64,000 nucleotides of DNA, taken from assembly GCA_934167875.1 (NCBI GenBank), contig CAKPMC010000005.1, positions 882 to 64,881 on the forward strand, given 5' to 3'. Shown here one piece after another: positions 17,812 to 51,735 of the stretch. Origin of the DNA: an uncultured Bacilli bacterium. GTDB lineage: Bacteria > Bacillota_I > Bacilli_A > RF39 > UBA660. The notes below the pieces were generated by a model that did no database searches, was not told the origin of the DNA, and worked only from the letters and a program-made list of their open reading frames with translations. Both the position numbers and the translations under genes were made by a program. Each line of letters starts with the position of its first letter. Position 1 is the stretch's first letter.

Positions 17812-18021
17812 AAAAAGCGACTATTCTTCCATAAGGACGAATAATCGCGGTACCACCTTAATTTATAGCATAACACTATACACTTAAACTCTTAACGCGA
17901 GTAACGAATAACTATAATTATCAGCTCCAGAACCATTTATTATTGTTCCTCTATATCTACTTTCACCTAACTAGACTCTCTCAAATAGATTTCCAATAAC
18001 TCTTTCCTTCAAAACATTTAT
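17812..18021 (-). promoter_or_regulatory. T-box riboswitch leader, probable Met specifier
   Basis: The minus strand carries Stem I boxes AGAGAG and GGTGAAAG and a candidate specifier AUG in AAUAAAUGGUUC. The T-box sequence AAUUAAGGUGGUACCGCG follows, then the terminator GCGATTATTCGTCC-TTAT-GGAAGAATAGTCGC-T6. Confidence 0.85.
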
Positions 18022-20386: not shown

Positions 20387-21868
20387 ATGAATAAGAAAAA
20401 AATTATGTACTGTGTTTTTATATCTTTTATTTTCTTACTAATATGTACAAAATCATCTCCATTATATGTATTAAATGATTGGTATGATGCGGAATGCTTT
20501 TTTACTGTTGGTAAATCAATGATAAAAGGAAAAGTACCATATCTTGATTTATTTGAACAAAAAGGCCCATTATTATTCTTAATATATGGAATAGCATCTT
20601 TGATATCAAATAATAGTTTTATTGGCGTATTTATTTTAGAAGTTATCTCATACTCAATATTTTTATATTATATTAGTAAAATAATAGAAATTTATTTAGA
20701 CAAAAAATATAGCTATATACTAATACCTATTCTGGCATTACTGATGTTACCAACTAGAAGTTTTACTCATGGTGGTAGTTGTGAAGAATTTTGTTTTCCA
20801 ATACTAGCAATCTTAATATATAAATACATTAAATATTTAAAAGACGATGATATTAGTAATAAGGAAACAATAATAATAGGAATATTAACAGGAATGTTAT
20901 TTTGGATGAAATATACATTAATAGGATTTAGTATCGGCTTCTGTATAACAGTATTAATAAAATTATTAGCAAGTAAAAAATTTAGAATATTAATAAATAA
21001 AGTTGGCTATTTCTTACTAGGAATTATCATTACTACTATTCCATGGCTTATATATTTTGGATTACATAAAAATGGCATTAAAAGTTTAATAGACGTCTAC
21101 TTCTTATTCAACATAAACAGTTATGCCAATAATTACACTTTAATTCAAAAAATAACTAATTGTTTTAACACTATTAAAGGAGTTATTTTTAAATATTACC
21201 AATATCTAATATTAATCATTATACCAATGATACTATCTATTAAAACAAAAACATTCTTCAAAGAAACAAAAAACAATATATATTTATTAATATCTACTAT
21301 GCTACTTTTAATAATAATATTTATAGGTGGCACTAACTTTAGATATTATTCTTTGCCAATACAACCATTTATGATTTTTGGTTTAATATTTATCAGCACC
21401 ATTATTAAAAACAAAAAAATAAATAGTATTATTCTTAACAATACTAAATATATAATACCAGGAATTATAACACTTTGCCTATTAATATCATACTATCGAT
21501 CACCAAACACAAAATATATAACTAAAAATAAATCATATTACGCTCAGTATACATTTTTAGATAGTATTAAACCTAATTCAAGTATACTAAACTATGGATT
21601 TTTAGATGGAGGATTTTATTTTACTACTAAAACATATCCAAATCAGTATTATTTTCAAAGAAATAATATTATATATGAATTATTTCCAAATAATACAAAT
21701 GAACAAATAAGATATATTAAAGAAAAACAGACTGACTATGTAATTATTAATAATGAATTATCAACAGAAGAGTTAAAAATATTAAATGATAACTATAATC
21801 TAATAGATAGTCATACTCAACAGTACGAAGAATATATAAGAACTTATTATTTATATGAAAAAAAATAA
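20387..21868 (+). CDS. GT-C fold membrane glycosyltransferase (PMT_2 / ArnT-like)
   Basis: 493 aa with more than 10 TM helices. The first-loop signature DWYDAECFF...GKVPYLDLFEQKGPLLFLIYG resembles the GT39/GT83 family. Confidence 0.7.
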   Translation: MNKKKIMYCVFISFIFLLICTKSSPLYVLNDWYDAECFFTVGKSMIKGKVPYLDLFEQKGPLLFLIYGIASLISNNSFIGVFILEVISYSIFLYYISKIIEIYLDKKYSYILIPILALLMLPTRSFTHGGSCEEFCFPILAILIYKYIKYLKDDDISNKETIIIGILTGMLFWMKYTLIGFSIGFCITVLIKLLASKKFRILINKVGYFLLGIIITTIPWLIYFGLHKNGIKSLIDVYFLFNINSYANNYTLIQKITNCFNTIKGVIFKYYQYLILIIIPMILSIKTKTFFKETKNNIYLLISTMLLLIIIFIGGTNFRYYSLPIQPFMIFGLIFISTIIKNKKINSIILNNTKYIIPGIITLCLLISYYRSPNTKYITKNKSYYAQYTFLDSIKPNSSILNYGFLDGGFYFTTKTYPNQYYFQRNNIIYELFPNNTNEQIRYIKEKQTDYVIINNELSTEELKILNDNYNLIDSHTQQYEEYIRTYYLYEKK

Positions 21869-25785: not shown

Positions 25786-25801
25786 TATTTCCCGGGAAAT
25801 A
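25786..25801. promoter_or_regulatory. Noc-binding site (NBS) palindrome
   Basis: TATTTCCCGGGAAATA matches the B. subtilis NBS consensus at 16 of 16 positions. It is embedded in the 26-bp palindrome AAAATTATTTCCCGGGAAATAATTTT between rsmI and pth. Confidence 0.8.
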
Positions 25802-29030: not shown

Positions 29031-29040
29031 ATAAATCACC

Positions 29041-29226
29041 TCAAAATGCTATTACTAATAACAAAACTAAAGATAATAAAGCCGGAAAACCTAAAAGCGT
29101 TATTAAAAAAACTGTTATAAAATTAATAGGTATTACTAAACTAAAATTACTTCCAATTGTATTAAAACCATACAAAATAACAAAACTAAAAAATATTTTT
29201 TTAATTAAACTCCATATTTTCTTCAT
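29041..29226 (-). CDS. bofA: Pro-sigmaK processing inhibitor BofA-like membrane protein
   Basis: 61 aa with two TM helices and the GFNTIGSNFSLVIPINFITVFLITLLGFPALL pattern. Lies downstream of recR as in Bacillus. Confidence 0.6.
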   Translation of the reverse strand: MKKIWSLIKKIFFSFVILYGFNTIGSNFSLVIPINFITVFLITLLGFPALLSLVLLLVIAF

Positions 29227-29263
29227 AGTATCACCTAATTAAAAATATGAACTTATAAAATTT

Positions 29264-30184: not shown

Positions 30185-31888
30185 CTAATTTATTGATATC
30201 ATATCTTCACCAAATAATTCGATAGCTTCATCAGTTATAGACCCATTATTTTTATCTACTATATTATTAGCAATTGAAATATCTGGTAATTTTTTATATT
30301 CATATTTAATATTATTATTCATATTTAATATATAATTTTCCTTTTCGTGATTCCACCTATCATTAGTTACCAATGCAATATCATAATGCTTATTATATAT
30401 TTTTTCAAATAGCTTGGAAATCTTTTCAATAATTTTAATACCTCTATCAACCATTGACTCATAAGCAAAAGAAATCAGTACTTCATTCTCACCAACTACT
30501 CTTACTACTCCATCTGAAATATAACATGCAACTGCACCAAATTCATTATCTAATGCATAATCATTAAGTTTATTCCAATTATTTTCAAAGTCCAATTTAT
30601 TTTTTTTATTTGCCCTAGCAAAGCAATTATTAATAATAATATCTAAAATTTCATCATATTTTTCTGAAGTTTCATCAGATAATTGTGGACTAATTATTTC
30701 CCGGGAAATAATTTTATCGGTATTATTATTTGTTTTTTGATAATCATTATCATTAACAGCATTACTAACTTGAAGTTCTTGATTATCTTTCACAGGAGTT
30801 GTTGTATCTGGTAATTTATGATAATCATTATCATTAATATTTTGTTTTGTTAGAATATTCTTATTAATAAATGATAATAATTCTATTTCTAAAGCAATTC
30901 TAATATTTGAAGAAAATTCAGCATTTTTCAATGTATTATTTAATGAATTTAAAAAACTTAATAATAAATCAATGTTATACTTATTTTCATTATTAACATA
31001 ATACGAAACACATAAATTTTTACACAGATTTATCATATCTTGAATAAATACAACAAAATCTTTACCATTATCATATATACTATCAATAAAGCTAATAATA
31101 TAATTTATGTTACCATTCATCACATTATCTAAAAATTTCATACGATCTGGTAATGATACAATTCCATTCACCTTTTCAAAATCTTCAATTGTAATATTAG
31201 AATTGGAATAAGCATTTAATTTATCCAACATACCAACAGCATCACGCATACCACCATCTGATAATTCAGCTATTCTACTTAAAATTTCATTTTCTACTTT
31301 AATATTTTCCTTTTCGCATATATACTCTAACCTCTTAGTAATATCTTCACAGCTAATGCGATGAAATTCAAGGCATTGACACCTAGATATAATAGTGACT
31401 GGTACTTTATGCAAATCAGTTGTAGCTAAAATAAAAATTACATGTTCTGGTGGTTCTTCTAAAGTTTTTAATAGTGCATTAAAAGCACCAATTGATAGCA
31501 TATGAACCTCATCAATAATATATACCTTATATTTTAATTGACCAGGTACTAAATTAATCTTACTTTTAATTTCACGAATTTCATCAACACCATTATTAGA
31601 AGCAGCATCAATTTCTATAATATCAGAATTTGAATTATCACTAATAGATAAACAATTTTTGCATTTTCCACAGGCATCGCCATCATTTAATTCCAAACAA
31701 TTAACAGTTTTTGCTAATATTTTAGCGATAGAAGTTTTTCCAATTCCACGCGGACCAGAAAACATATAAGCATGACAAACTTTATTATTAATAATTGCAT
31801 TTTTCAATATTTTAATAACAATATCTTGGCCAATTACATCTTCTAAAGTAGACGGTCTATATTTTCTATATAAAGCTTGATAAGACAT
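30185..31888 (-). CDS. dnaX: DNA polymerase III subunit gamma/tau
   Basis: Walker A GPRGIGKTS, zinc module CGKCKNC, DEVHMLS and SRCQ. Start MSYQALYRKYRP at 31888 after GGAGGTG. Confidence 0.93.
   Translation of the reverse strand: MSYQALYRKYRPSTLEDVIGQDIVIKILKNAIINNKVCHAYMFSGPRGIGKTSIAKILAKTVNCLELNDGDACGKCKNCLSISDNSNSDIIEIDAASNNGVDEIREIKSKINLVPGQLKYKVYIIDEVHMLSIGAFNALLKTLEEPPEHVIFILATTDLHKVPVTIISRCQCLEFHRISCEDITKRLEYICEKENIKVENEILSRIAELSDGGMRDAVGMLDKLNAYSNSNITIEDFEKVNGIVSLPDRMKFLDNVMNGNINYIISFIDSIYDNGKDFVVFIQDMINLCKNLCVSYYVNNENKYNIDLLLSFLNSLNNTLKNAEFSSNIRIALEIELLSFINKNILTKQNINDNDYHKLPDTTTPVKDNQELQVSNAVNDNDYQKTNNNTDKIISREIISPQLSDETSEKYDEILDIIINNCFARANKKNKLDFENNWNKLNDYALDNEFGAVACYISDGVVRVVGENEVLISFAYESMVDRGIKIIEKISKLFEKIYNKHYDIALVTNDRWNHEKENYILNMNNNIKYEYKKLPDISIANNIVDKNNGSITDEAIELFGEDMISIN
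30695..30710. promoter_or_regulatory. Noc-binding site (NBS) palindrome inside the dnaX coding sequence
   Basis: TATTTCCCGGGAAATA matches the consensus at 16 of 16 positions. It is read in dnaX as the codons for I-I-S-R-E-I-I. Confidence 0.75.
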
Positions 31889-32395: not shown

Positions 32396-32413
32396 AATTT
32401 CACCTACAAAAAA

Positions 32414-32487
32414 GGTGCACATAAATATTATATGTTAAGGCTGCTATCTTCCGATCCTGACCTGGTTCCATAAATACTTATTGCACC
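32414..32487 (-). ncRNA. ffs: Signal recognition particle RNA, minimal 4.5S-like form
   Basis: The minus strand reads GGTGCAATAAGTATTTATGGAACCAGGTCAGGATCGGAAGATAGCAGCCTTAACATATAATATTTATGTGCACC followed by T6. It has the conserved domain IV core CCAGGUCAGG..CGGAAG..AGCAGCC and closing helix GGUGCA/UGCACC. Confidence 0.8.
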
Positions 32488-32494
32488 AATGAAT

Positions 32495-32523
32495 ATAATA
32501 TTATATTTTATAAAAAAGAGCAA
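32495..32523 (-). promoter_or_regulatory. Promoter of the SRP RNA
   Basis: TTGCTC, a 17-nt spacer, then TATTAT. The start of the GGTGCA helix lies 7 nt downstream. Confidence 0.6.
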
Positions 32524-32532
32524 CTTTTTTTA

Positions 32533-32548
32533 TGTTTCACGTGAAACA
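32533..32548. promoter_or_regulatory. parS site 1 (ParB/Spo0J centromere)
   Basis: TGTTTCACGTGAAACA fits consensus TGTTNCACGTGAAACA perfectly. The palindrome extends to 18 bp: ATGTTTCACGTGAAACAT. Confidence 0.85.
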
Positions 32549-32549
32549 T

Positions 32550-32558
32550 TGTGGAAAA
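32550..32558 (-). promoter_or_regulatory. DnaA box (TTTTCCACA) fused to parS 1
   Basis: The plus strand reads TGTGGAAAA, 1 nt after parS 1. It has one mismatch to TTATCCACA and is the same variant that dominates oriC here. Confidence 0.65.
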
Positions 32559-32637
32559 TATAATTTAAATACATATATTTATAATTAAATTATTTAAAAT
32601 TATAGTGTTTTGATACAAATATTAACTAATTTTGCTA

Positions 32638-32653
32638 TGTTTCACGTGAAACA
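32638..32653. promoter_or_regulatory. parS site 2
   Basis: TGTTTCACGTGAAACA, a perfect match. Confidence 0.85.
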
Positions 32654-32662
32654 TGTGAATAA
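32654..32662 (-). promoter_or_regulatory. DnaA box-like (TTATTCACA) fused to parS 2
   Basis: The plus strand reads TGTGAATAA directly abutting parS 2. One mismatch to the consensus. Confidence 0.55.
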
Positions 32663-32857
32663 CTATTATTTTATTAATATAATATATAAATAAAATAATA
32701 GTATGTAAAATTTAATCATTTCAAAAAAACTAATAAAATCAGTACTATATAAAGTAAAATATTATGATCTTAGTACGTTAATATTTTATATAGTAAATAT
32801 AATTATTATAAGCTATATTATTTTCTAATATCATATAAATATTTAGAATAATATATA

Positions 32858-32873
32858 TGTTTCACGTGAAACA
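32858..32873. promoter_or_regulatory. parS site 3
   Basis: TGTTTCACGTGAAACA, a perfect match. Confidence 0.85.
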
Positions 32874-32874
32874 T

Positions 32875-32883
32875 TGTGGATAA
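32875..32883 (-). promoter_or_regulatory. Consensus DnaA box fused to parS 3
   Basis: The plus strand reads TGTGGATAA, the exact complement of TTATCCACA, 1 nt after parS 3. Confidence 0.75.
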
Positions 32884-32885
32884 AT

Positions 32886-32901
32886 TATTTCCCGGGAAAT
32901 A
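32886..32901. promoter_or_regulatory. Noc-binding site (NBS) in cassette 3
   Basis: TATTTCCCGGGAAATA matches at 16 of 16 positions, 2 nt after the DnaA box. Confidence 0.8.
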
Positions 32902-33112
32902 ATTTGAAACATCGTATATTACTCAAATAAATATATAATAACAAAATTATTAAATAGTGATGTAAATTAATAGCTGTTTTTTACACCAAATCACATAAGT
33001 AACAAGTAAGTAATATATTAATATTTATTTACATTACAGTAAAAATTAATTTTAAATTATGTAATTTAAATTAATAATTGTTTTAAGTACTTCATTAAAA
33101 TAAATAAAACAA

Positions 33113-33128
33113 TGTTTCACGTGAAACA
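33113..33128. promoter_or_regulatory. parS site 4
   Basis: TGTTTCACGTGAAACA, a perfect match. Confidence 0.85.
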
Positions 33129-33137
33129 TGTGGATAA
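33129..33137 (-). promoter_or_regulatory. Consensus DnaA box fused to parS 4
   Basis: The plus strand reads TGTGGATAA directly abutting parS 4. Confidence 0.75.
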
Positions 33138-33140
33138 ATT

Positions 33141-33156
33141 TATTTCCCGGGAAATA
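33141..33156. promoter_or_regulatory. Noc-binding site (NBS) in cassette 4
   Basis: TATTTCCCGGGAAATA matches at 16 of 16 positions, 3 nt after the DnaA box. Confidence 0.8.
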
Positions 33157-33190
33157 ATTTATAAAAAATAGCTTTTAACAATTAATAAAA

Positions 33191-33199
33191 TTATCCACA
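33191..33199 (+). promoter_or_regulatory. Consensus DnaA box, inverted relative to the other four
   Basis: TTATCCACA on the plus strand, 19 nt before the fifth parS-like palindrome. Confidence 0.7.
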
Positions 33200-33218
33200 A
33201 ATAAATAAATCAAAATAT

Positions 33219-33234
33219 AGTTTCACGTGAAACT
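33219..33234. promoter_or_regulatory. parS-like site 5 (outer positions changed)
   Basis: AGTTTCACGTGAAACT keeps the inner 14 bp of parS and the palindrome. It lies 13 nt downstream of the gyrA stop. Confidence 0.65.
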
Positions 33235-33246
33235 AAAAAAGTATGT

Positions 33247-35892
33247 CTATTCAGACACACTTTCATTATTTTCACTTTCACTATTATCAAGTTCAGTAGC
33301 AGACTCAGTTGATTCTTCATCTTCCTTAATAATGGTAGAAACAGTTGCTACCTTTTGATCATCTTTAAGTTTAATTAAACGAACACCTTGAGTAGCACGA
33401 CCTAAGGTAGATATTTGATCCATTGCCATTCTCATTACGATACCACTATCAGTAATAATAACTAAATCTTCTTCACCAGTAACAGCCTTTAATGATACTA
33501 ACATACCATTCTTTTCAGTAACATTAAGTGCCTTAACACCCTTACTACCACGATGCGTTAATCTATATTCGTCAATTGGAGTCTTCTTTCCATAACCTTT
33601 TTCAGTAACTATTAATACCTGTTCATCAGAAGTAATTATTTCGCCACCTATAACCGTGCTATTACCTAATTCAATACCTTTAACACCAGAAGCAGTACGA
33701 CCCATGACACGAATTTCGTTTTCCACAAATCTTACCATTCTTCCATTTGATGCACCAATAATAACTTCATTTTCTCCAGTAGTTTTACGAACAGATATAA
33801 GTTCATCATCTTCTTTTAACGTTATAGCAATTTTTCCACTACTACGTATATTATCAAATTCACTTAAATCAGTACGTTTAACAATACCATTTTTAGTAAC
33901 AAATACAAAGTAATTATATTCATGTTCCTTAGCACTCAATGAAACAATAGAATTAATGCTTTCACCTTTTTCCACAGGTAATAAATTAACTATTGGCAGT
34001 CCTTTACTTTGTCTGCTAAATTCTGGAACCTCATAACCTTTCATTCTGTATACCTTACCTTTATTACTAAAGAAGAATATATAATCATGAGTTTCCATAT
34101 TAATCATCTTTTCCACAAAATCCTCTTCATTAGTAGCCATACCTTTAATTCCTACTCCGCCACGATTTTGTGTACGATAAGCATCAACTGGCATTCTCTT
34201 AATATAACCTTTATTAGTTAATGTAATTAATATGTTATCCACAGGTATCAACGATTCATCCTCTATATATTCAATTGCTGTCATATCAATTTGAGTTCTA
34301 CGATCATCACTGTACTTACGCTTAATTTCTAGCATTTCCTCTTTAATAATATCTAGAACTCTTTGTCCATTAGCTAAAATATCCTTATAATCAGCTATCT
34401 TAACAAGTAAATCATTTAATTCAGCTTCTACTTTTCCACGTTCTAATCCAGTTAAACGACGTAATCTCATCTCAAGAATACTGTTAGCTTGAATATCATC
34501 TAAAGCAAATCTAGACATTAAATTATTTCTTGCCTCATCATCACTTTCAGCAGCCCTAATAATATGTACAACTTCATCGATATTATCAAGTGCTATACGT
34601 AATCCTTCTAAAATATGAACTCTTTCTTCAGCTTTTCCTAAATCATAACGAGTTCTTCTTAAAATTACTTCCTTTTGATGATCTATATATTTAGAAATAA
34701 TATCCTTTATACCTAAAGTTCTAGGAGTTTGACCATCAAGAACTAAGAAAATAATACCATAAGATATTTGAAAATTAGTATGCTTATATAATTGATTCAA
34801 AATAACTTGTGCATTAGCATCTTTCTTTAAAGTAATAGTAATTTTAATACCATCTTTTAAATCAGTATGATAATCAGAAATACCTTCAATAGTTTTATTA
34901 TGAACAAGTTCAGCAACTTTATTTTTAAGTTCCATAGTATTAACACCGTAAGGAACTTCTGTAATAACTATTTGATGATGATTACCATTTTCTTCAATAG
35001 TAGCTTTACTACGAATAGTAATGGAACCTCGACCTGTTTCATAAGCTTTCTTAATACCAGAATTACCTAAAATAATACCACCTGTAGGAAAATCTGGTCC
35101 TTTAATATATTGCATCAATCCCATGGTATCAATATCTGGATTATCAATATACGCAACACAACCATCTATAACTTCTCCTAAATTATGTGGTGGAATATTA
35201 GTAGCCATACCAACTGCAATACCCATAGATCCATTAACAAGTACATTAGGAAATCTAGAAGGTAATACTTTAGGTTCTTTTCTTGTAGCATCAAAGTTGT
35301 CATCCATATCAACAGTATCTTTATTAATATCCCTTAATAATTCCAATGAAATTTTAGCAAGCCTTGACTCGGTATAACGCATTGCTGCTGCGCCATCTCC
35401 TTCAATATTACCAAAATTACCATGGCCATCAATTAACATATATCTTTGGTTAAAATCTTGCGCTAAACGTACCATTGCTTCATAAATAGAACTATCTCCA
35501 TGTGGGTGATAATTACCCATAACTTCTCCGACCGTTTTAGCGCTCTTTCTGTGAGGTTTATCAGGTGTATAACCAGATTCATACATAGACCATAAAATAC
35601 GTCTGTGAACAGGCTTTAAACCATCTCTAAGGTCAGGTAATGCACGAGACTTAATAACACTCATTGAATATTCCATAAAAGAAGTTTTAACTTCATCTAC
35701 AATGTTATTATGATCTAATCTATCTCTTTCATGAAAATATCCACTAAAATTACCATTAGATTTAATTATATCAATATCTTCTTGAGAATTATTATCATTA
35801 GTATTAGAAGTATCATCAGTAACATTATCAGTATTATTATCTTCTTCACTAGCTCTAGCTAATAATTCATTTAAATCATCTTTGTTATCCAT
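33247..35892 (-). CDS. gyrA: DNA gyrase subunit A, with an acidic N-terminal extension and an acidic C-terminal tail
   Basis: Motifs YSMSVIKSRALPDLRDGLKPVHRRILW and active-site AAMRYTE, plus beta-pinwheel CTD repeats. ATG at 35892 lies 7 nt after GGGAGG. Confidence 0.97.
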   Translation of the reverse strand: MDNKDDLNELLARASEEDNNTDNVTDDTSNTNDNNSQEDIDIIKSNGNFSGYFHERDRLDHNNIVDEVKTSFMEYSMSVIKSRALPDLRDGLKPVHRRILWSMYESGYTPDKPHRKSAKTVGEVMGNYHPHGDSSIYEAMVRLAQDFNQRYMLIDGHGNFGNIEGDGAAAMRYTESRLAKISLELLRDINKDTVDMDDNFDATRKEPKVLPSRFPNVLVNGSMGIAVGMATNIPPHNLGEVIDGCVAYIDNPDIDTMGLMQYIKGPDFPTGGIILGNSGIKKAYETGRGSITIRSKATIEENGNHHQIVITEVPYGVNTMELKNKVAELVHNKTIEGISDYHTDLKDGIKITITLKKDANAQVILNQLYKHTNFQISYGIIFLVLDGQTPRTLGIKDIISKYIDHQKEVILRRTRYDLGKAEERVHILEGLRIALDNIDEVVHIIRAAESDDEARNNLMSRFALDDIQANSILEMRLRRLTGLERGKVEAELNDLLVKIADYKDILANGQRVLDIIKEEMLEIKRKYSDDRRTQIDMTAIEYIEDESLIPVDNILITLTNKGYIKRMPVDAYRTQNRGGVGIKGMATNEEDFVEKMINMETHDYIFFFSNKGKVYRMKGYEVPEFSRQSKGLPIVNLLPVEKGESINSIVSLSAKEHEYNYFVFVTKNGIVKRTDLSEFDNIRSSGKIAITLKEDDELISVRKTTGENEVIIGASNGRMVRFVENEIRVMGRTASGVKGIELGNSTVIGGEIITSDEQVLIVTEKGYGKKTPIDEYRLTHRGSKGVKALNVTEKNGMLVSLKAVTGEEDLVIITDSGIVMRMAMDQISTLGRATQGVRLIKLKDDQKVATVSTIIKEDEESTESATELDNSESENNESVSE

Positions 35893-40779: not shown

Positions 40780-40921
40780 ATATATTCCTTCTTTCTTAAA
40801 TAGTTATTATTATTATTATTACTGTGGAAACTGTGTATAAGTGTCATCCAACCTTATTTTATCACATTTTTACTAAAATTTACCTGTGGAAAAAAAGTTT
40901 TAAATTTGCATTTTATCCACA
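40780..40921. promoter_or_regulatory. oriC, dnaA-dnaN half (incC-like), with DnaA boxes and trio repeat
   Basis: DnaA boxes at 40823-40831 (GTTTCCACA, minus), 40832-40840 (TTATACACA, minus), 40885-40893 (TTTTCCACA, minus) and 40913-40921 (TTATCCACA, plus). A (TAA)6 repeat sits at 40804-40821. Confidence 0.85.
40804..40821 (-). repeat. (TAA)x6 trinucleotide repeat, candidate DnaA-trio array
   Basis: The plus strand shows (TTA)x6. On the minus strand the order is TTATACACA-GTTTCCACA-G-(TAA)6. Confidence 0.6.
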
Positions 40922-42331
40922 CTATACTATTTCTTTCTTTAATTTTTCAATAATATTAGCTAATTCTTTATTAGTTGCTATTTCATTTTCTATTTTTTCC
41001 ACGGAGTGCATAACTGTTGAATGATCTTTACCACCAAACTCAATTCCTATTTTAGGAAATGACTCATTTGTGAGTTTCCTACATAAATACATTGCTACTT
41101 GTCTTGGAAATGCTAAATTAGCACTTCTTTTCTTTGACTTCATATCTTCAACTGATACCTGAAAGTATTCAGCAACAATTCTTTGTATTCTATTAACACT
41201 ATTTTTTTCACTATATCCTTTATTTACAAAGTCTTTTAATACATCAACCGCCAGATCTAATGTTATTTCTGCACCACCCATGATAGTTGAATAAGCAAGT
41301 AGTCTTGTAATTGAACCTTCTAGATGTCTAACATCGCTACCAACATTAGAAGCAATATATTCAATAACATCATCAGGTATATTTTTATTCAACGACTCCC
41401 CTATTATCTTTTTCTTGATGATTGCTACTCTTAAATCAAAATCCGGTGGAAATATATCAGCGGTTAATCCCCAACAAAATCTAGTTCTTAACCTATCTTC
41501 TAATAGTTTTAAGTCATCTGGAGAACGATCAGATGAAATAATTATTTGTTTATTTTCATCGTAAAGCTTAGTAAATGTATTAAAAAACTCATTCTGTGTT
41601 TGCGGTGCGCCTTGAAAAAATTGAATATCATCTACTATTAATACATCAATACTCCTATATTTATTTTTAAAATAACTAACATAATCAAAGTTTTTGCCAT
41701 TTTCATCCTTTTTATTAATACCTAAGAAATCAGTTATAAATTGATCACTTGATACATATAAAACCTTTTTATTAGAATGTTCTGTTATATAATTACCAAT
41801 TGCATGCATTAAATGTGTCTTCCCTAATCCACTATTTCCATATATAAATAAAGGATTATATAAAACACCAGGATTTTCGGCAACTTCAAGTGCAGCAGCT
41901 TGTGCAAATTTATTTGTATTCCCTACTATAAAATTTTCAAAAGTATAATTTTTATTAAGATTTGAACAGAAATTGTTAATAACATTACTATTATCTATAC
42001 TCTTTCCATCGTTATCAACATTATTGTGGATATACATAGGATTTATATTATCATTACTAGTATTTTCATTTTCTAATTCATCTATTTCTTCTTTAGTATA
42101 GAATTCAATATCAATATTATCACCTACAACATTACTTAGGTTATCTACTATTAATTCATAATATTTAGTAGCCAAATGTTTTTTATACATAGCCATTGGC
42201 ACTATTATTTTGCATACACCATCTTTATATTCATATAATTCTGTATTTTTAAACCAGGTTTCAAACGATAAGGGGTTTAATTCATTTTTAATAACGTTTA
42301 AAAAATTAGCCCAAATAATTTTTGTATTCAT
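40922..42331 (-). CDS. dnaA: Chromosomal replication initiator protein DnaA
   Basis: Walker A GNSGLGKTHL, VDDIQF and the C-terminal DNA-binding domain GGKDHSTVMHS. RBS GGGGGGA. Confidence 0.97.
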   Translation of the reverse strand: MNTKIIWANFLNVIKNELNPLSFETWFKNTELYEYKDGVCKIIVPMAMYKKHLATKYYELIVDNLSNVVGDNIDIEFYTKEEIDELENENTSNDNINPMYIHNNVDNDGKSIDNSNVINNFCSNLNKNYTFENFIVGNTNKFAQAAALEVAENPGVLYNPLFIYGNSGLGKTHLMHAIGNYITEHSNKKVLYVSSDQFITDFLGINKKDENGKNFDYVSYFKNKYRSIDVLIVDDIQFFQGAPQTQNEFFNTFTKLYDENKQIIISSDRSPDDLKLLEDRLRTRFCWGLTADIFPPDFDLRVAIIKKKIIGESLNKNIPDDVIEYIASNVGSDVRHLEGSITRLLAYSTIMGGAEITLDLAVDVLKDFVNKGYSEKNSVNRIQRIVAEYFQVSVEDMKSKKRSANLAFPRQVAMYLCRKLTNESFPKIGIEFGGKDHSTVMHSVEKIENEIATNKELANIIEKLKKEIV

Positions 42332-42612
42332 TATTATTATCCCCCCTGACTAAAGATAATTTCAAATTGCAAGTCTTATTCTAACTTAAAATTGTGGAAA
42401 AATAAATAGTTATTTTTATCTTTTTTTTAATTCACAGTTTATCAACAGTTTTTTCCACAAATATAAACCTTATATATATTGAATATATCACACTTTTCCA
42501 CAAATTTAAAAAAATAACTAATCACAAGGTTAATAAAGTTATAAACAAGACTGTGGAAATAGTGGAAAATTACATTTATAATGTGGAAAATGAATATTTT
42601 TTTATGAAATAA
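42332..42612. promoter_or_regulatory. oriC, dnaA-upstream half (incA/B-like) DnaA-box cluster
   Basis: Boxes at 42393-42401, 42439-42447 (TTATCAACA), 42451-42459, 42494-42502, 42552-42560, 42561-42569 and 42582-42590. Most are the TTTTCCACA variant, in both orientations, in AT-rich DNA. Confidence 0.85.
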
Positions 42613-42642
42613 TTGACAAAACCTAATATTTATTATTATAAT
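42613..42642 (+). promoter_or_regulatory. Promoter of rpmH-rnpA
   Basis: TTGACA, an 18-nt spacer, then TATAAT. Confidence 0.65.
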
Positions 42643-42673
42643 AATGTAGATTTTATGTCTGGAGGTGGAAACT

Positions 42674-42796
42674 ATGAAAAGAACTTATCAACCAAATAAT
42701 CGTAAGATGAAAAAAGCACATGGATTTTTTTCAAGAGTTAAAGGTAACGTATTAAAGAAAAGAAGAGCAAAAGGTCGTAAAAGATTATCTAAATAA
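42674..42796 (+). CDS. rpmH: 50S ribosomal protein L34
   Basis: Below the ORF-track size cut-off. Hand translation gives [51 protein letters not shown]. Confidence 0.9.
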
Positions 42797-42825
42797 AAAA
42801 TGCCACAATTATGTGGTTTTTTTTG
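42797..42825 (+). terminator. Weak intrinsic terminator/attenuator after rpmH
   Basis: CCACA-ATTA-TGTGG hairpin followed by a T8 run. Confidence 0.5.
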
Positions 42826-46189: not shown

Positions 46190-46220
46190 AAAAATTATTT
46201 CCCGGGAAATAATTTTTTTC
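46190..46220 (+). terminator. NBS-containing hairpin positioned as the mnmE terminator
   Basis: AAAAATTATTTCC-CGG-GAAATAATTTTT perfect palindrome followed by more Ts, 46 nt after the mnmE stop. Confidence 0.6.
46196..46211. promoter_or_regulatory. Noc-binding site (NBS) palindrome
   Basis: TATTTCCCGGGAAATA matches at 16 of 16 positions. Confidence 0.8.
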
Positions 46221-48959: not shown

Positions 48960-49988
48960 ATGGATAAAGAAGTAGTTGAATTATATTTAGATGACATAAT
49001 TCCTAACCGTTTTCAACCACGTGAAGTATTTAATGAAGAGGCACTAAGAGAATTATCAGCATCTATAAAAGAACATGGTGTAATTCAACCAATTATTGTT
49101 AGAAAAATAGGTGACAAATATGAAATAATAGCTGGTGAAAGAAGATATAAAGCATCAGCATTAGCAGGACTAACAAAAATTCCTGCCATAATTCGCAACC
49201 TAGATGATAAAGAAGCTTCTAAAGTTGCCCTTTTAGAGAATCTTCAAAGAAAAGATTTAACAGCAATAGAAGAAGCAAGAACATATCAAAAAATACTTGA
49301 ATTAGATTCAATGACACAAGAAGAATTAGGTCGTACAATGGGTAAATCTCAAGCAGCAATAGCTAATAAAATGAGATTATTATCATTACCAGATGAAGTA
49401 CAAGAGGCTTTATTAAAAGATCAAATATCAGAACGTCATGCTAGAAGTTTATTAAACTTAGATACTCCAGAAGAACAAATTAATATGTTAAGAAAGATAA
49501 TATCTAATCGTATGACAGTAAGAGAATTAGATAATGAAATTAGAGAACTAAAAGGTGAAACATCAATTCCATCAACTATTAACAATGATAGTGTTACAAT
49601 AGTAAATGAAACTGGTCCAAAAGTAGAAGTAAATAATAATGAATCACATGAAGTGCCAACATTAAATTTACCAGAATCACCTTCAAATGAATTAGATGAT
49701 GATTTCTCACCATTATCTTTTATTCCTAAAGATGATACTCCAGAAGTATTAGAAGCTTTATCTGATATTGAAGAACCAGAACCAATAGAAGAAAAATCAA
49801 ATACTGATGATTTTAAAGCTATTGATAATTTATTAAAATCAACGAAATTGTATACAATGGAAGATGCTGTGAATGAAATAAAAAGTGTAGTAGCTAAAAT
49901 TCAAAATAAAGGAATAAAGATTACTACTGATGATATGGATTTTGAAAATACTTATCAAATAGTTATTAAAATTGATAAAAACAATTAA
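48960..49988 (+). CDS. noc: Nucleoid occlusion protein Noc (ParB paralog), atypical termini
   Basis: ParB N-domain IIPNRFQPR and GERRYKA. The HTH recognition stretch GKSQAAIANKMRLL resembles B. subtilis Noc (GKGQSTIANKLRLL as recalled). Position between rsmG and soj supports the call. Confidence 0.8.
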   Translation: MDKEVVELYLDDIIPNRFQPREVFNEEALRELSASIKEHGVIQPIIVRKIGDKYEIIAGERRYKASALAGLTKIPAIIRNLDDKEASKVALLENLQRKDLTAIEEARTYQKILELDSMTQEELGRTMGKSQAAIANKMRLLSLPDEVQEALLKDQISERHARSLLNLDTPEEQINMLRKIISNRMTVRELDNEIRELKGETSIPSTINNDSVTIVNETGPKVEVNNNESHEVPTLNLPESPSNELDDDFSPLSFIPKDDTPEVLEALSDIEEPEPIEEKSNTDDFKAIDNLLKSTKLYTMEDAVNEIKSVVAKIQNKGIKITTDDMDFENTYQIVIKIDKNN

Positions 49989-50078: not shown

Positions 50079-50867
50079 ATGGGAAAGATAATTTCATTAG
50101 TAAATCAAAAAGGTGGAGTAGGAAAAACAACAACAAGTATTAATCTTTCTGCATCACTTGCTTATTTAGGTAAAAAAGTATTATTAATAGACTTAGATCC
50201 ACAAGGTAATACAACAACTGGTGTAGGAATTAATAAAGGCGATATCACAAATAGTGTTCATGAAGTTTTAACTGGTAAATGTGAAATTACTGAAGCAATT
50301 ATAAAAACAAAGTATAAAAATTTATATGTTTTACCTGCAACTATTAATCTAGCAGGATTAGATATGGAATTAATTGAAAAAAGTAAAGTAAATCAAGGCT
50401 TCGCTAAGAATGCCCAATTAAAAACATTTTTAGATCCAATTAAAGACTTATTTAATTATATAATAATTGATTGTCCCCCTTCTTTAGGATTAATAACTAC
50501 TAATGCACTAACAGCTTCAGATTCAGTTATTATCCCAGTTCAATGTGAATTTTTTGCTTTGGAAGGAATTACTCAATTATTAAATACTATTATGTTAGCT
50601 CAAAAGAATTTAAATCCAAATCTAGATATAGAAGGTGTTTTATTAACAATGCTTGATTCTAGAACATTGTTAGGACTAGAAGTAGTAGAAGATATAAGAA
50701 GATTCTTTAAAGAAAGAGTATACAATACTATAATTCCAAGATTAGTAAAATTAACCGAAGCACCTTCACATGGAAAACCAATATTAGCTTATGACCCAAA
50801 ACATAGGGCAACAGAAGCTTATATAAATTTAGCAAAGGAAGTGATTGCACGAAATGGAGACATCTAG
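50079..50867 (+). CDS. soj: Chromosome partitioning ATPase ParA/Soj
   Basis: Deviant Walker A NQKGGVGKTTT, DLDPQGN and DCPPSLG. Confidence 0.93.
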   Translation: MGKIISLVNQKGGVGKTTTSINLSASLAYLGKKVLLIDLDPQGNTTTGVGINKGDITNSVHEVLTGKCEITEAIIKTKYKNLYVLPATINLAGLDMELIEKSKVNQGFAKNAQLKTFLDPIKDLFNYIIIDCPPSLGLITTNALTASDSVIIPVQCEFFALEGITQLLNTIMLAQKNLNPNLDIEGVLLTMLDSRTLLGLEVVEDIRRFFKERVYNTIIPRLVKLTEAPSHGKPILAYDPKHRATEAYINLAKEVIARNGDI

Positions 50868-51735
50868 AAGAAAGGCTTTAGGAAGAGGCCTAGAAGAATT
50901 ATTTAATAATGAACCAATGGATTATGAAAAAATTGAAGAAAAAATAATGGATGAATCTACAAATGAAGAAATAGTTGAATTACCATTATCTGAATTAAGA
51001 AGCAATCCATATCAGCCAAGAAAGAACTTTGATGAAGGAGCATTACAAGAATTAGCTAACTCTATTAAAGAACATGGCGTATTTCAACCAATTATTGCTA
51101 AAAAGAGTATAAAAGGTTATGAAATAATAGCTGGTGAGCGTAGAGTAAAAGCCTCAATTCTAGCAGGAAAAGAAACTATTCCAGCTATTTTGAGAGATTT
51201 TTCAGATCAAGATATGATGGAAATTGCTTTACTTGAAAACTTACAAAGAGAAAATCTTAATGCTTTAGAAGAAGCTATAGCTTATAAAAAGTTAATAGAT
51301 GAATTATCATTAACACAAGATAAACTTGCTGAAAGATTAGGAAAAAGTAGAAGCCATATTACTAATATGTTAGGATTATTATCATTACCAGAAGAAGTAA
51401 AAGATATGATAATGGCTAATAAATTATCTATGAGTCATGCACGTGTTCTAAGTAAGATAGAAGATAGTGAAAAAGTTAAACAATTAGCAGAAAAAATAGT
51501 TGTAGAAGGCTTAAGTGTAAGAGAGGTTGAAGATCTTTCACATGAAAATATTTATGAAAAGAAAAATACACAAGTAAGACATGAAACTAATCGCAACGAA
51601 TACAAAGTAATAGAAGAAGAATTATCAGATAAATTTGGAACCAAAGTAAAAATTAAAAATAATAAAATTGAAATTCATTTTGTAAACCCTAATGATTTAA
51701 ATAGAATTTTAGAAATTATTGGACTAGATAACTAA
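50854..51735 (+). CDS. spo0J: Chromosome partitioning protein ParB/Spo0J
   Basis: Motifs ALGRGLEELF, NPYQPRK and GERR. HTH stretch GKSRSHITNMLGLL and C-terminal NDLNRILEII. ATG at 50854; the track TTG start is 50845. Confidence 0.9.
   Translation: METSRRKALGRGLEELFNNEPMDYEKIEEKIMDESTNEEIVELPLSELRSNPYQPRKNFDEGALQELANSIKEHGVFQPIIAKKSIKGYEIIAGERRVKASILAGKETIPAILRDFSDQDMMEIALLENLQRENLNALEEAIAYKKLIDELSLTQDKLAERLGKSRSHITNMLGLLSLPEEVKDMIMANKLSMSHARVLSKIEDSEKVKQLAEKIVVEGLSVREVEDLSHENIYEKKNTQVRHETNRNEYKVIEEELSDKFGTKVKIKNNKIEIHFVNPNDLNRILEIIGLDN

Follow-up and report, generated by a model that had tools for sequence, protein, structure and literature searches.

The 749-bp noncoding array described here (positions 32498 to 33246) lies in a 64-kb stretch of DNA from an uncultured Bacilli bacterium (contig CAKPMC010000005.1; the whole stretch is referred to below as the window). 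It combines sites for three DNA-binding proteins: parS, the site of the partitioning protein ParB; the Noc-binding site (NBS), the site of the ParB paralog Noc; and DnaA boxes, the sites of the replication initiator DnaA. The array is located directly downstream of gyrA (33247..35892, minus strand), which flanks it on the side of the replication origin, oriC, with a terminator-like hairpin (33237..33264, minus strand) at the gyrA end. On its far flank it extends up to the gene for the signal recognition particle (SRP) RNA (32398..32497, minus strand).

On the left replichore, about 9.5 kb separate the array from oriC. The origin itself is marked by dnaA (40922-42331), with DnaA-box clusters on either side of the gene (40780..42810, minus strand), and by the GC skew, which switches sign at about 42-43 kb; the boxes that flank dnaA are mostly of the TTTTCCACA variant. 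To the left of oriC, dnaN, recF, gyrB, gyrA, the array, the SRP RNA gene, tadA, dnaX, ybaB, and recR follow one another, all on the minus strand. The other side of oriC carries rsmG, a gene for a 342-residue Noc-like ParB paralog (48960..49988, plus strand), parA, encoding a Soj-like ATPase (50079..50867, plus strand), and the adjacent parB, encoding a Spo0J-like protein (50845..51735, plus strand).

ParB and Noc are textbook examples of paralogous CTP-dependent clamps, and their sites are normally described apart, parS at the origin and NBS scattered along the arms of the chromosome, with none close to the terminus. In the present clade, the two kinds of sites are interleaved at a single orthologous locus in more than 100 species, and one subclade also has DnaA boxes fused to them. 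The original prediction had singled out two 44-bp segments of the array (cassettes 3 and 4), in which parS, a DnaA box, and NBS are packed together with the same 28-bp spacing between parS and NBS. It had offered three possible meanings: a shared or mutually exclusive loading zone for the two clamps, a boundary element that sets the direction of clamp spreading, and a three-way switch that connects segregation with nucleoid occlusion and initiation.

Binding sites in the array

A scan of the window for parS with up to 2 mismatches to the 16-bp consensus palindrome TGTTNCACGTGAAACA returns five matches versus 0.01 expected, all of them in 32533-33234. Four of these sites are perfect and the fifth has a perfect 14-bp core; outside the array, the 64-kb window contains no parS-like site even at 3 mismatches. 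The perfect sites are parS 1 (TGTTTCACGTGAAACA, 32533..32548), located about 36 bp upstream of the 5' end of the SRP RNA, parS 2 (32638..32653), parS 3 in cassette 3 (32858..32873), and parS 4 in cassette 4 (33113..33128). The site with the perfect core, parS 5 (AGTTTCACGTGAAACT, 33219..33234), is found beside the gyrA terminator. The steps from one parS to the next are 105, 220, 255, and 106 bp, three of the four being close to whole multiples of 10.5 bp.

For NBS, the same threshold of 2 mismatches yields five perfect matches to the 16-bp TATTTCCCGGGAAATA, again versus 0.01 expected. Two of them belong to the cassettes (32886..32901 in cassette 3 and 33141..33156 in cassette 4). The other three are located within the dnaX coding sequence (30695..30710), in a pth/rsmI-like intergenic gap (25786..25801), and between mnmE and mnmG (46196..46211). 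Thus, in the 64 kb around oriC that the window covers, all NBS lie between -16.8 and +3.6 kb of the origin. The dnaX site is found in the same place in related species (loci L065, L126/L128, L098, L016, L066, and L088), and the position of the site in the pth/rsmI-like gap is kept in L066. In the window and in L065, the dnaX site is followed by a DnaA-box-like TTAGTCCACA or TTAATCCACA. All five copies share the extended palindrome AAAT-NBS-ATTT. The hexamer CCCGGG occurs in the window exclusively within these five sites; its reading as a restriction site was dropped, as the hexamer is confined to the 16-bp NBS and the conserved unit is much longer.

The perfect DnaA box TTATCCACA is present in six copies in the window versus 0.73 expected, and three of the six fall within the array. 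With these counts, chance is ruled out as the source of the cassette sites. Each of the four perfect parS has a DnaA-type box at 0 to 1 nt from its gyrA-proximal, that is, oriC-proximal, end, in one orientation throughout. Specifically, parS 1 is accompanied at 1 nt by TTTTCCACA (32550..32558, minus strand), which has 1 mismatch and is the variant dominant in oriC; parS 2 is abutted by TTATTCACA (32654..32662, minus strand), which fits the TTATNCACA consensus; and parS 3 and parS 4 are accompanied by perfect TTATCCACA boxes (32875..32883 and 33129..33137, respectively, both on the minus strand), the latter abutting its parS. The boxes beside the parS at 32533 and 32638 (TGTGGAAAA and TGTGAATAA) had gone unmentioned in the original prediction. 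The third perfect box (33191..33199, plus strand) is inverted relative to the others and forms, with the box at 33129-33137, an inverted repeat (I20) that encloses the NBS of cassette 4. The cluster therefore comprises 3 perfect boxes and 2 boxes with at most 1 mismatch to TTATNCACA in 749 bp. A promoter scan of the array gives no more sites than shuffled sequence. No structured RNA is detected in the array by Rfam, whose matches in the window are limited to the SRP RNA and a T-box leader (17830-18021, minus strand; 95.6 bits versus a gathering score of 93).

Reading of the sequence bears out the two 44-bp cassettes. Cassette 3 (32858-32901) consists of TGTTTCACGTGAAACA-T-TGTGGATAA-AT-TATTTCCCGGGAAATA and cassette 4 (33113-33156) of TGTTTCACGTGAAACA-TGTGGATAA-ATT-TATTTCCCGGGAAATA, where TGTGGATAA on the plus strand is TTATCCACA on the minus strand. 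Each contains a perfect 16-bp parS, a perfect DnaA box, and a perfect 16-bp NBS. In both, the centers of parS and NBS are 28 bp apart. The DnaA box of one copy is displaced by 1 nt relative to that of the other, and 255 bp separate the two cassette starts. Of the 44 bp, 41 are the binding sites themselves. Because the NBS palindrome extends to AAAT/ATTT, what looks like a spacer between the box and the NBS belongs to the extended NBS, and the sites of each cassette touch or overlap; in cassette 3, the extended palindrome runs into the DnaA box.

The array in related genomes

When the GTDB species genomes are scanned for parS and NBS cores no more than 31 nt apart, at least 119 loci are found. 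Among the 119 matches listed, 116 are located at the gyrA-array-tadA-dnaX-ybaB-recR site, so that at least 116 GTDB species share this arrangement. All 116 syntenic loci come from low-GC uncultured gut Bacilli, with GyrA proteins 50 to 97% identical to that of the window; the labels of the respective metagenome-assembled genomes include Bacilli, Tenericutes, Erysipelotrichaceae, "Ca. Scybalousia," "Ca. Onthousia," and Clostridium sp. CAG:710. The 3 matches outside this clade (L029, L036, and L072) come from high-GC genomes, contain a 12-bp CCCGGG core without the full NBS, and were set aside. The original prediction had suggested a search for the 44-bp composite in related genomes, and it proves to be conserved in related species.

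Because the GTDB set was chosen for close parS-NBS pairs, a second, unbiased sample was drawn from metagenome contigs with the C-terminal domain of GyrA as the query. It contains 29 in-clade loci, which correspond to approximately 18 informative lineages. The parS array is found right after gyrA or tadA in 18 of these 18 lineages, and no site is present in any of the 51 outgroup loci of the same sample. Six conspecific strains with identical RecR all retain both cassettes with identical internal offsets, and differ in the number of box-parS units. The array evolves through gain and loss of units.

The order NBS-box-parS, taken along the direction of gyrA, is found, among the matches listed and sampled, exclusively in the subclade of the window. 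This subclade (subclade A; L065, L030, L098, L056, L126-130, L016, L042, L076, L099, and L051) was delimited after the cassettes had been seen. Its consensus is NBS-ATTT(0-2 nt)-(T)ATNCACA-(A)-parS. The basic unit is a DnaA box (TTATNCACA or TTTTCCACA) placed against the oriC-proximal side of the 16-bp parS. Some units also have an NBS, including its AAAT/ATTT extensions, joined to the box on its opposite side, and the three sites then occupy 44 bp with 1 to 3 bases to spare. In this subclade, so delimited, a TTATNCACA box with at most 1 mismatch is located on the oriC side of 35 of the 53 distinct parS contexts and on the other side of none; the respective counts in the rest of the clade are 12 and 3 of 452. 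In a different sublineage (L141, L143, and L153), a DnaA-box-like 9-mer is found 16.5 bp from the parS center, on the side away from gyrA, and is repeated along the array, a geometry unlike that of the window.

Long, regular arrays of alternating parS and NBS, with up to 12 units, occupy the same gyrA-tadA site in L040, L053, L052, L031, L107, L105, L081, L002, L004, and L039. Their periods range from 56 to 105 bp, and L040 alternates spacers of 147 and 308 bp. Whether sites are better conserved than spacers in these regular arrays was considered as a test of selection and abandoned, as near-identical recent units make it uninformative. The closest packing is seen in L100 (2915-2947) and L047 (7678-7711), where NBS and parS are 1 to 2 nt apart, with their centers at 17 to 18 bp.

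Predicted binding proteins and possible roles of the cassettes

The three motifs named in the original prediction are genuine consensus sites, and their predicted partners, ParB, a Noc-like paralog, and DnaA, are all encoded nearby. The best structure match of ParB is Bacillus subtilis Spo0J (6sdk; 208 bits). It has an R at specificity position 173, has no R201, and retains the N-terminal RRKALGRGLEELF peptide. The Noc-like protein scores best against the solved Noc structures (207 bits versus 168 to 178 bits for Spo0J/ParB). Recognition is switched from parS to NBS by four positions (173, 179, 184, and 201), which are Q, K, K, and R in Noc (Jalal 2020, PMC7383237). The Noc-like protein has three of the four (Q173, K179, and R201) and S in place of K184. 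It also contains the GERR CTP motif, and a long acidic linker precedes its C-terminal domain; its score against NCBIfam TIGR04285, 289.6 bits, falls below the cut-off of 315.

The Noc-like protein begins with MDKEVVELYLDDIIPNRFQPR; PNRFQPR is preceded by 14 residues, and stop codons in the same frame lie upstream of the start. In the alignment with B. subtilis Noc, residue 3 of the Noc-like protein is paired with residue 28. The protein thus has no amphipathic membrane-targeting helix at its N terminus, and the ParA-stimulating peptide of ParB is absent as well. The short N terminus is common to all 120 closest homologues (60 to 99% identity, 247 to 377 residues), and the QKSR combination is found in 111 of the 120. 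In known Noc proteins this helix is highly conserved, and Noc is nonfunctional without it (PMC4331003). The Noc of the original prediction is therefore in need of revision, and a direct tie of the cassettes to nucleoid occlusion is doubtful, the helix being absent.

Cassettes 3 and 4 are probably two units of a conserved, origin-proximal centromere array, predicted to be a shared loading zone for two CTP-dependent clamps combined with a DnaA-box cluster. Among the three meanings offered by the original prediction, such a shared loading zone appears to fit the data best. ParB-CTP clamps would load at parS and Noc-like CTP clamps at NBS, and both would spread over one origin-proximal domain. As DnaA would be expected to occupy the boxes, the array would at the same time represent an oriC-proximal DnaA-box cluster. 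Because the sites of a cassette abut or overlap, a protein bound at one of them probably hinders loading or sliding at its neighbor, either by competition or as a roadblock, on the oriC side of each parS. Lacking the helix, the Noc-like protein is probably a second clamp that resides at the centromere and acts on DNA, not one that tethers DNA to the membrane.

Several observations weigh against a shared loading zone. In the unbiased sample, NBS is present in the array in 9 or 10 of the 18 lineages, about half, and a parS-NBS pair within 44 bp is found in just 4 of the 18. The regular arrays of L040, L053, L052, L031, and L107 consist of near-identical tandem copies, spacers included; these are recent amplifications and hence uninformative on selection. 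Under a null model of placement within the array, the closeness of NBS to parS has P = 0.08 in the window and P = 0.04 in L128 and is not significant in other lineages: as a parS occurs every ~100 to 250 bp of the array, a randomly placed NBS often lands close to one. Tight parS-NBS adjacency may accordingly be functionless, and with such mixed results closeness was rejected as a proof of selection and does not serve as a main argument here. In addition, the Noc-like protein has S at one of the four positions that set Noc specificity (K184), the box matches the parS half-site at 5 to 6 of 9 positions, and the NBS map spans just 64 kb of the genome.

The main rival, which is possible although on balance unlikely, is passive co-residence without functional coupling. 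In that case, NBS, parS, and DnaA boxes would gather in one sizeable origin-proximal noncoding region and multiply there by unit duplication, each site acting independently and the packing having no mechanistic meaning. The weak significance of closeness given the parS density, the recent tandem amplification of the arrays in other subclades, and the differences in unit number between strains are all in line with it, as are the many lineages with parS alone or with NBS 47 to 203 bp from the nearest parS. However, NBS needs no large intergenic region: one lies within dnaX and two are found in gaps of ~50 to 100 bp. Furthermore, the NBS-box-parS order, its polarity, and the 26- to 31-bp packing are kept down to ~68% GyrA identity, with flanks that cannot be aligned, and the boxes are found on the oriC side (35 of 53 parS versus 0 of 53 on the other). 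Finally, the distances between adjacent parS and NBS, taken over 212 clusters with distinct spacers among the matches listed, are bimodal rather than flat.

In these 212 spacer-collapsed clusters (loci L001-L119), the distances have maxima at 26-27 and 35-36 bp and minima at 28-30 and 41 bp. The peaks would correspond to approximately 2.5 and 3.5 helical turns, a preference that is suggestive only, because the lineages share ancestry and the range spans less than 3 periods. Minor bumps are seen near 48-49, 57, and 65 bp among the adjacent pairs of L001-L119, at roughly half-integral numbers of turns.

The shared loading zone can be extended to a more specific joint scheme, which is put forward tentatively and is unlikely to hold in all its parts. 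In it, the Noc paralog of the whole clade would be a second centromere-resident CTP clamp and not a membrane-tethering occlusion factor, with its loading sites hard-wired beside parS at ~2.5 or 3.5 turns. The subclade of the window would then have sandwiched a DnaA box between the two sites, resulting in a three-protein module in which DnaA occupancy might gate clamp loading, or the reverse. As a variant of the same scheme, the clade might keep an intermediate stage of the ParB-to-Noc transition, with NBS specificity gained at the centromere before the membrane helix arose.

Selection for phasing at exactly 28 bp, which the original prediction had seen in the preserved spacing, together with its suggested three-way switch of segregation, nucleoid occlusion, and initiation, is improbable. 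The distance is 28 bp in both cassettes although the box has moved by 1 nt, both cassettes are identical in the six strains, and the clade-wide distances prefer values about one helical turn apart. Nevertheless, the constancy holds within the species only. The original prediction had proposed to check whether the spacing is conserved in relatives, and it is not: the orthologous cassettes have center distances of 26, 27, 28, 29, 30, and 31 bp, and 42 bp in L056, which leaves selection for the exact value unsupported. The 28 bp of the window is also off the clade-wide peaks, in the trough between them, and the Noc-like protein has no membrane helix of the kind needed for nucleoid occlusion (PMC4331003). 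The exact spacing is a species-level state and no conserved constraint; its value mostly follows from the need to accommodate the 9-bp box between two neighboring sites with extended flanks that reach into it.

It is highly improbable that the 9-mer beside parS, instead of being a DnaA site, serves ParB or the Noc-like protein as a third or accessory half-site, or constitutes a promoter element. In favor of such a role, TTTTCCACA equals the parS half-site TGTTTCACG at 6 of 9 positions, and parS 1 with its box lies upstream of the SRP RNA start at a distance of ~36 bp. However, three copies are perfect 9/9 matches to the DnaA consensus, the oriC regions that flank dnaA are populated by the same variant, and the promoter scan is no richer than for shuffled sequence. 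Moreover, the box variants in relatives differ largely at position 5, the degenerate N of TTATNCACA, as expected of DnaA boxes, with some variation at position 3 as well. Recent duplication of a segment, which the original prediction had named as a refutation, can practically be ruled out: the 44-bp cores are nearly identical, but 41 of the 44 bases are binding sites, the composite is found across many species, and the flanks of cassettes 3 and 4 are unrelated, with identities of 35/100 and 46/100 versus a background of 36 +/- 4.7 among randomly paired segments of this region. In L016, the cassette copies are likewise embedded in unrelated flanks.

Three further features of the window deserve mention. 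A 493-residue open reading frame (20387-21868, plus strand) is located on the strand opposite to all its left-replichore neighbors and coincides with a local GC dip (0.21) and a blip in the GC skew. A 61-residue BofA-family gene (PF07441, linked to sporulation) is found at ~29040-29263 (6635-6820 in L120), between recR and a holB-like gene, in a genome labeled Tenericutes. GyrA is called as an 881-residue protein, in which ~57 residues precede the start of the NCBIfam GyrA model (35722-35892), indicating either an N-terminal extension or a start call placed too early.

Comparison with known systems

Literature searches found no description of interleaved parS/NBS arrays, of a parS-DnaA box fusion, of a helix-less Noc, or of Noc in Tenericutes-like lineages. 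The array resembles the ParABS centromere of Firmicutes in its perfect consensus parS, its origin-proximal position, and the canonical ParB and ParA encoded in the rsmG-noc-parA-parB order. In B. subtilis, the parS sites are scattered and often lie within genes. Here, in contrast, all five parS are collected in one intergenic array after gyrA, and the perfect ones are fused to a DnaA box and, in some cases, also to an NBS.

With the Noc-NBS system of Bacillus and Staphylococcus (PMC4331003, PMC7383237, PMC8429893), the array shares an identical 16-bp NBS and a paralog encoded between rsmG and parA, which matches the solved Noc structures best and has Q173, K179, R201, and the GERR CTP motif. 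It differs in that the amphipathic membrane helix is missing from the protein and its 120 closest homologues, that K184 is changed to S, and that the family score of 289.6 stays under the cut-off of 315. Also, the NBS are embedded in a parS array instead of being kept apart from it.

Links between the initiator and partitioning have been described in several bacteria. As summarized in a review (PMC6399470), DnaA of Caulobacter crescentus binds at the parS centromere (Mera et al. 2014). The likeness consists in initiator boxes in the centromere region and in a link of DnaA to partitioning, which for the array is predicted; compared with that summary, the present organism is a Firmicute, its consensus boxes abut parS with a fixed polarity, and NBS is added. 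In B. subtilis, oriC-proximal DnaA-box clusters are genetically linked to Spo0J/Soj (Okumura et al., PMC3245932). Here too, 5 or 6 boxes are located outside yet close to oriC. In contrast to the present boxes, those of B. subtilis are not known to be joined physically to parS.

In Staphylococcus aureus, Noc is a negative regulator of DnaA-dependent initiation, as indicated by a genetic link and weak chromatin immunoprecipitation peaks at oriC, and the authors raised the possibility that Noc beside DnaA sites occludes DnaA (PMC5540599). The array differs in having a perfect NBS hard-wired against a perfect DnaA box at 9.5 kb from oriC. The cassette thus bears on the question, posed by the S. 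aureus work, of how Noc could influence DnaA, as well as on the role of a Noc without its anchor. As a compact natural substrate of 44 bp, it allows one to ask whether DnaA and two different clamps of the ParB family assist or obstruct one another or act independently. Although the organisms are uncultured, such an in vitro study is feasible with synthesized genes. If the three-protein module proved true, initiation would be physically coupled to segregation.

The rctA/parS2 locus of Vibrio cholerae chromosome II is bound by both ParB2 and the initiator RctB, which antagonize each other (PMC6399470). As predicted for the array, it brings the sites of a centromere protein and an initiator together in one locus; in contrast to the array, its initiator is unrelated, the replicon is plasmid-like, and a second ParB paralog is lacking. 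All three types of sites in the array are thus known, and links between them are known from Caulobacter, B. subtilis, and S. aureus.

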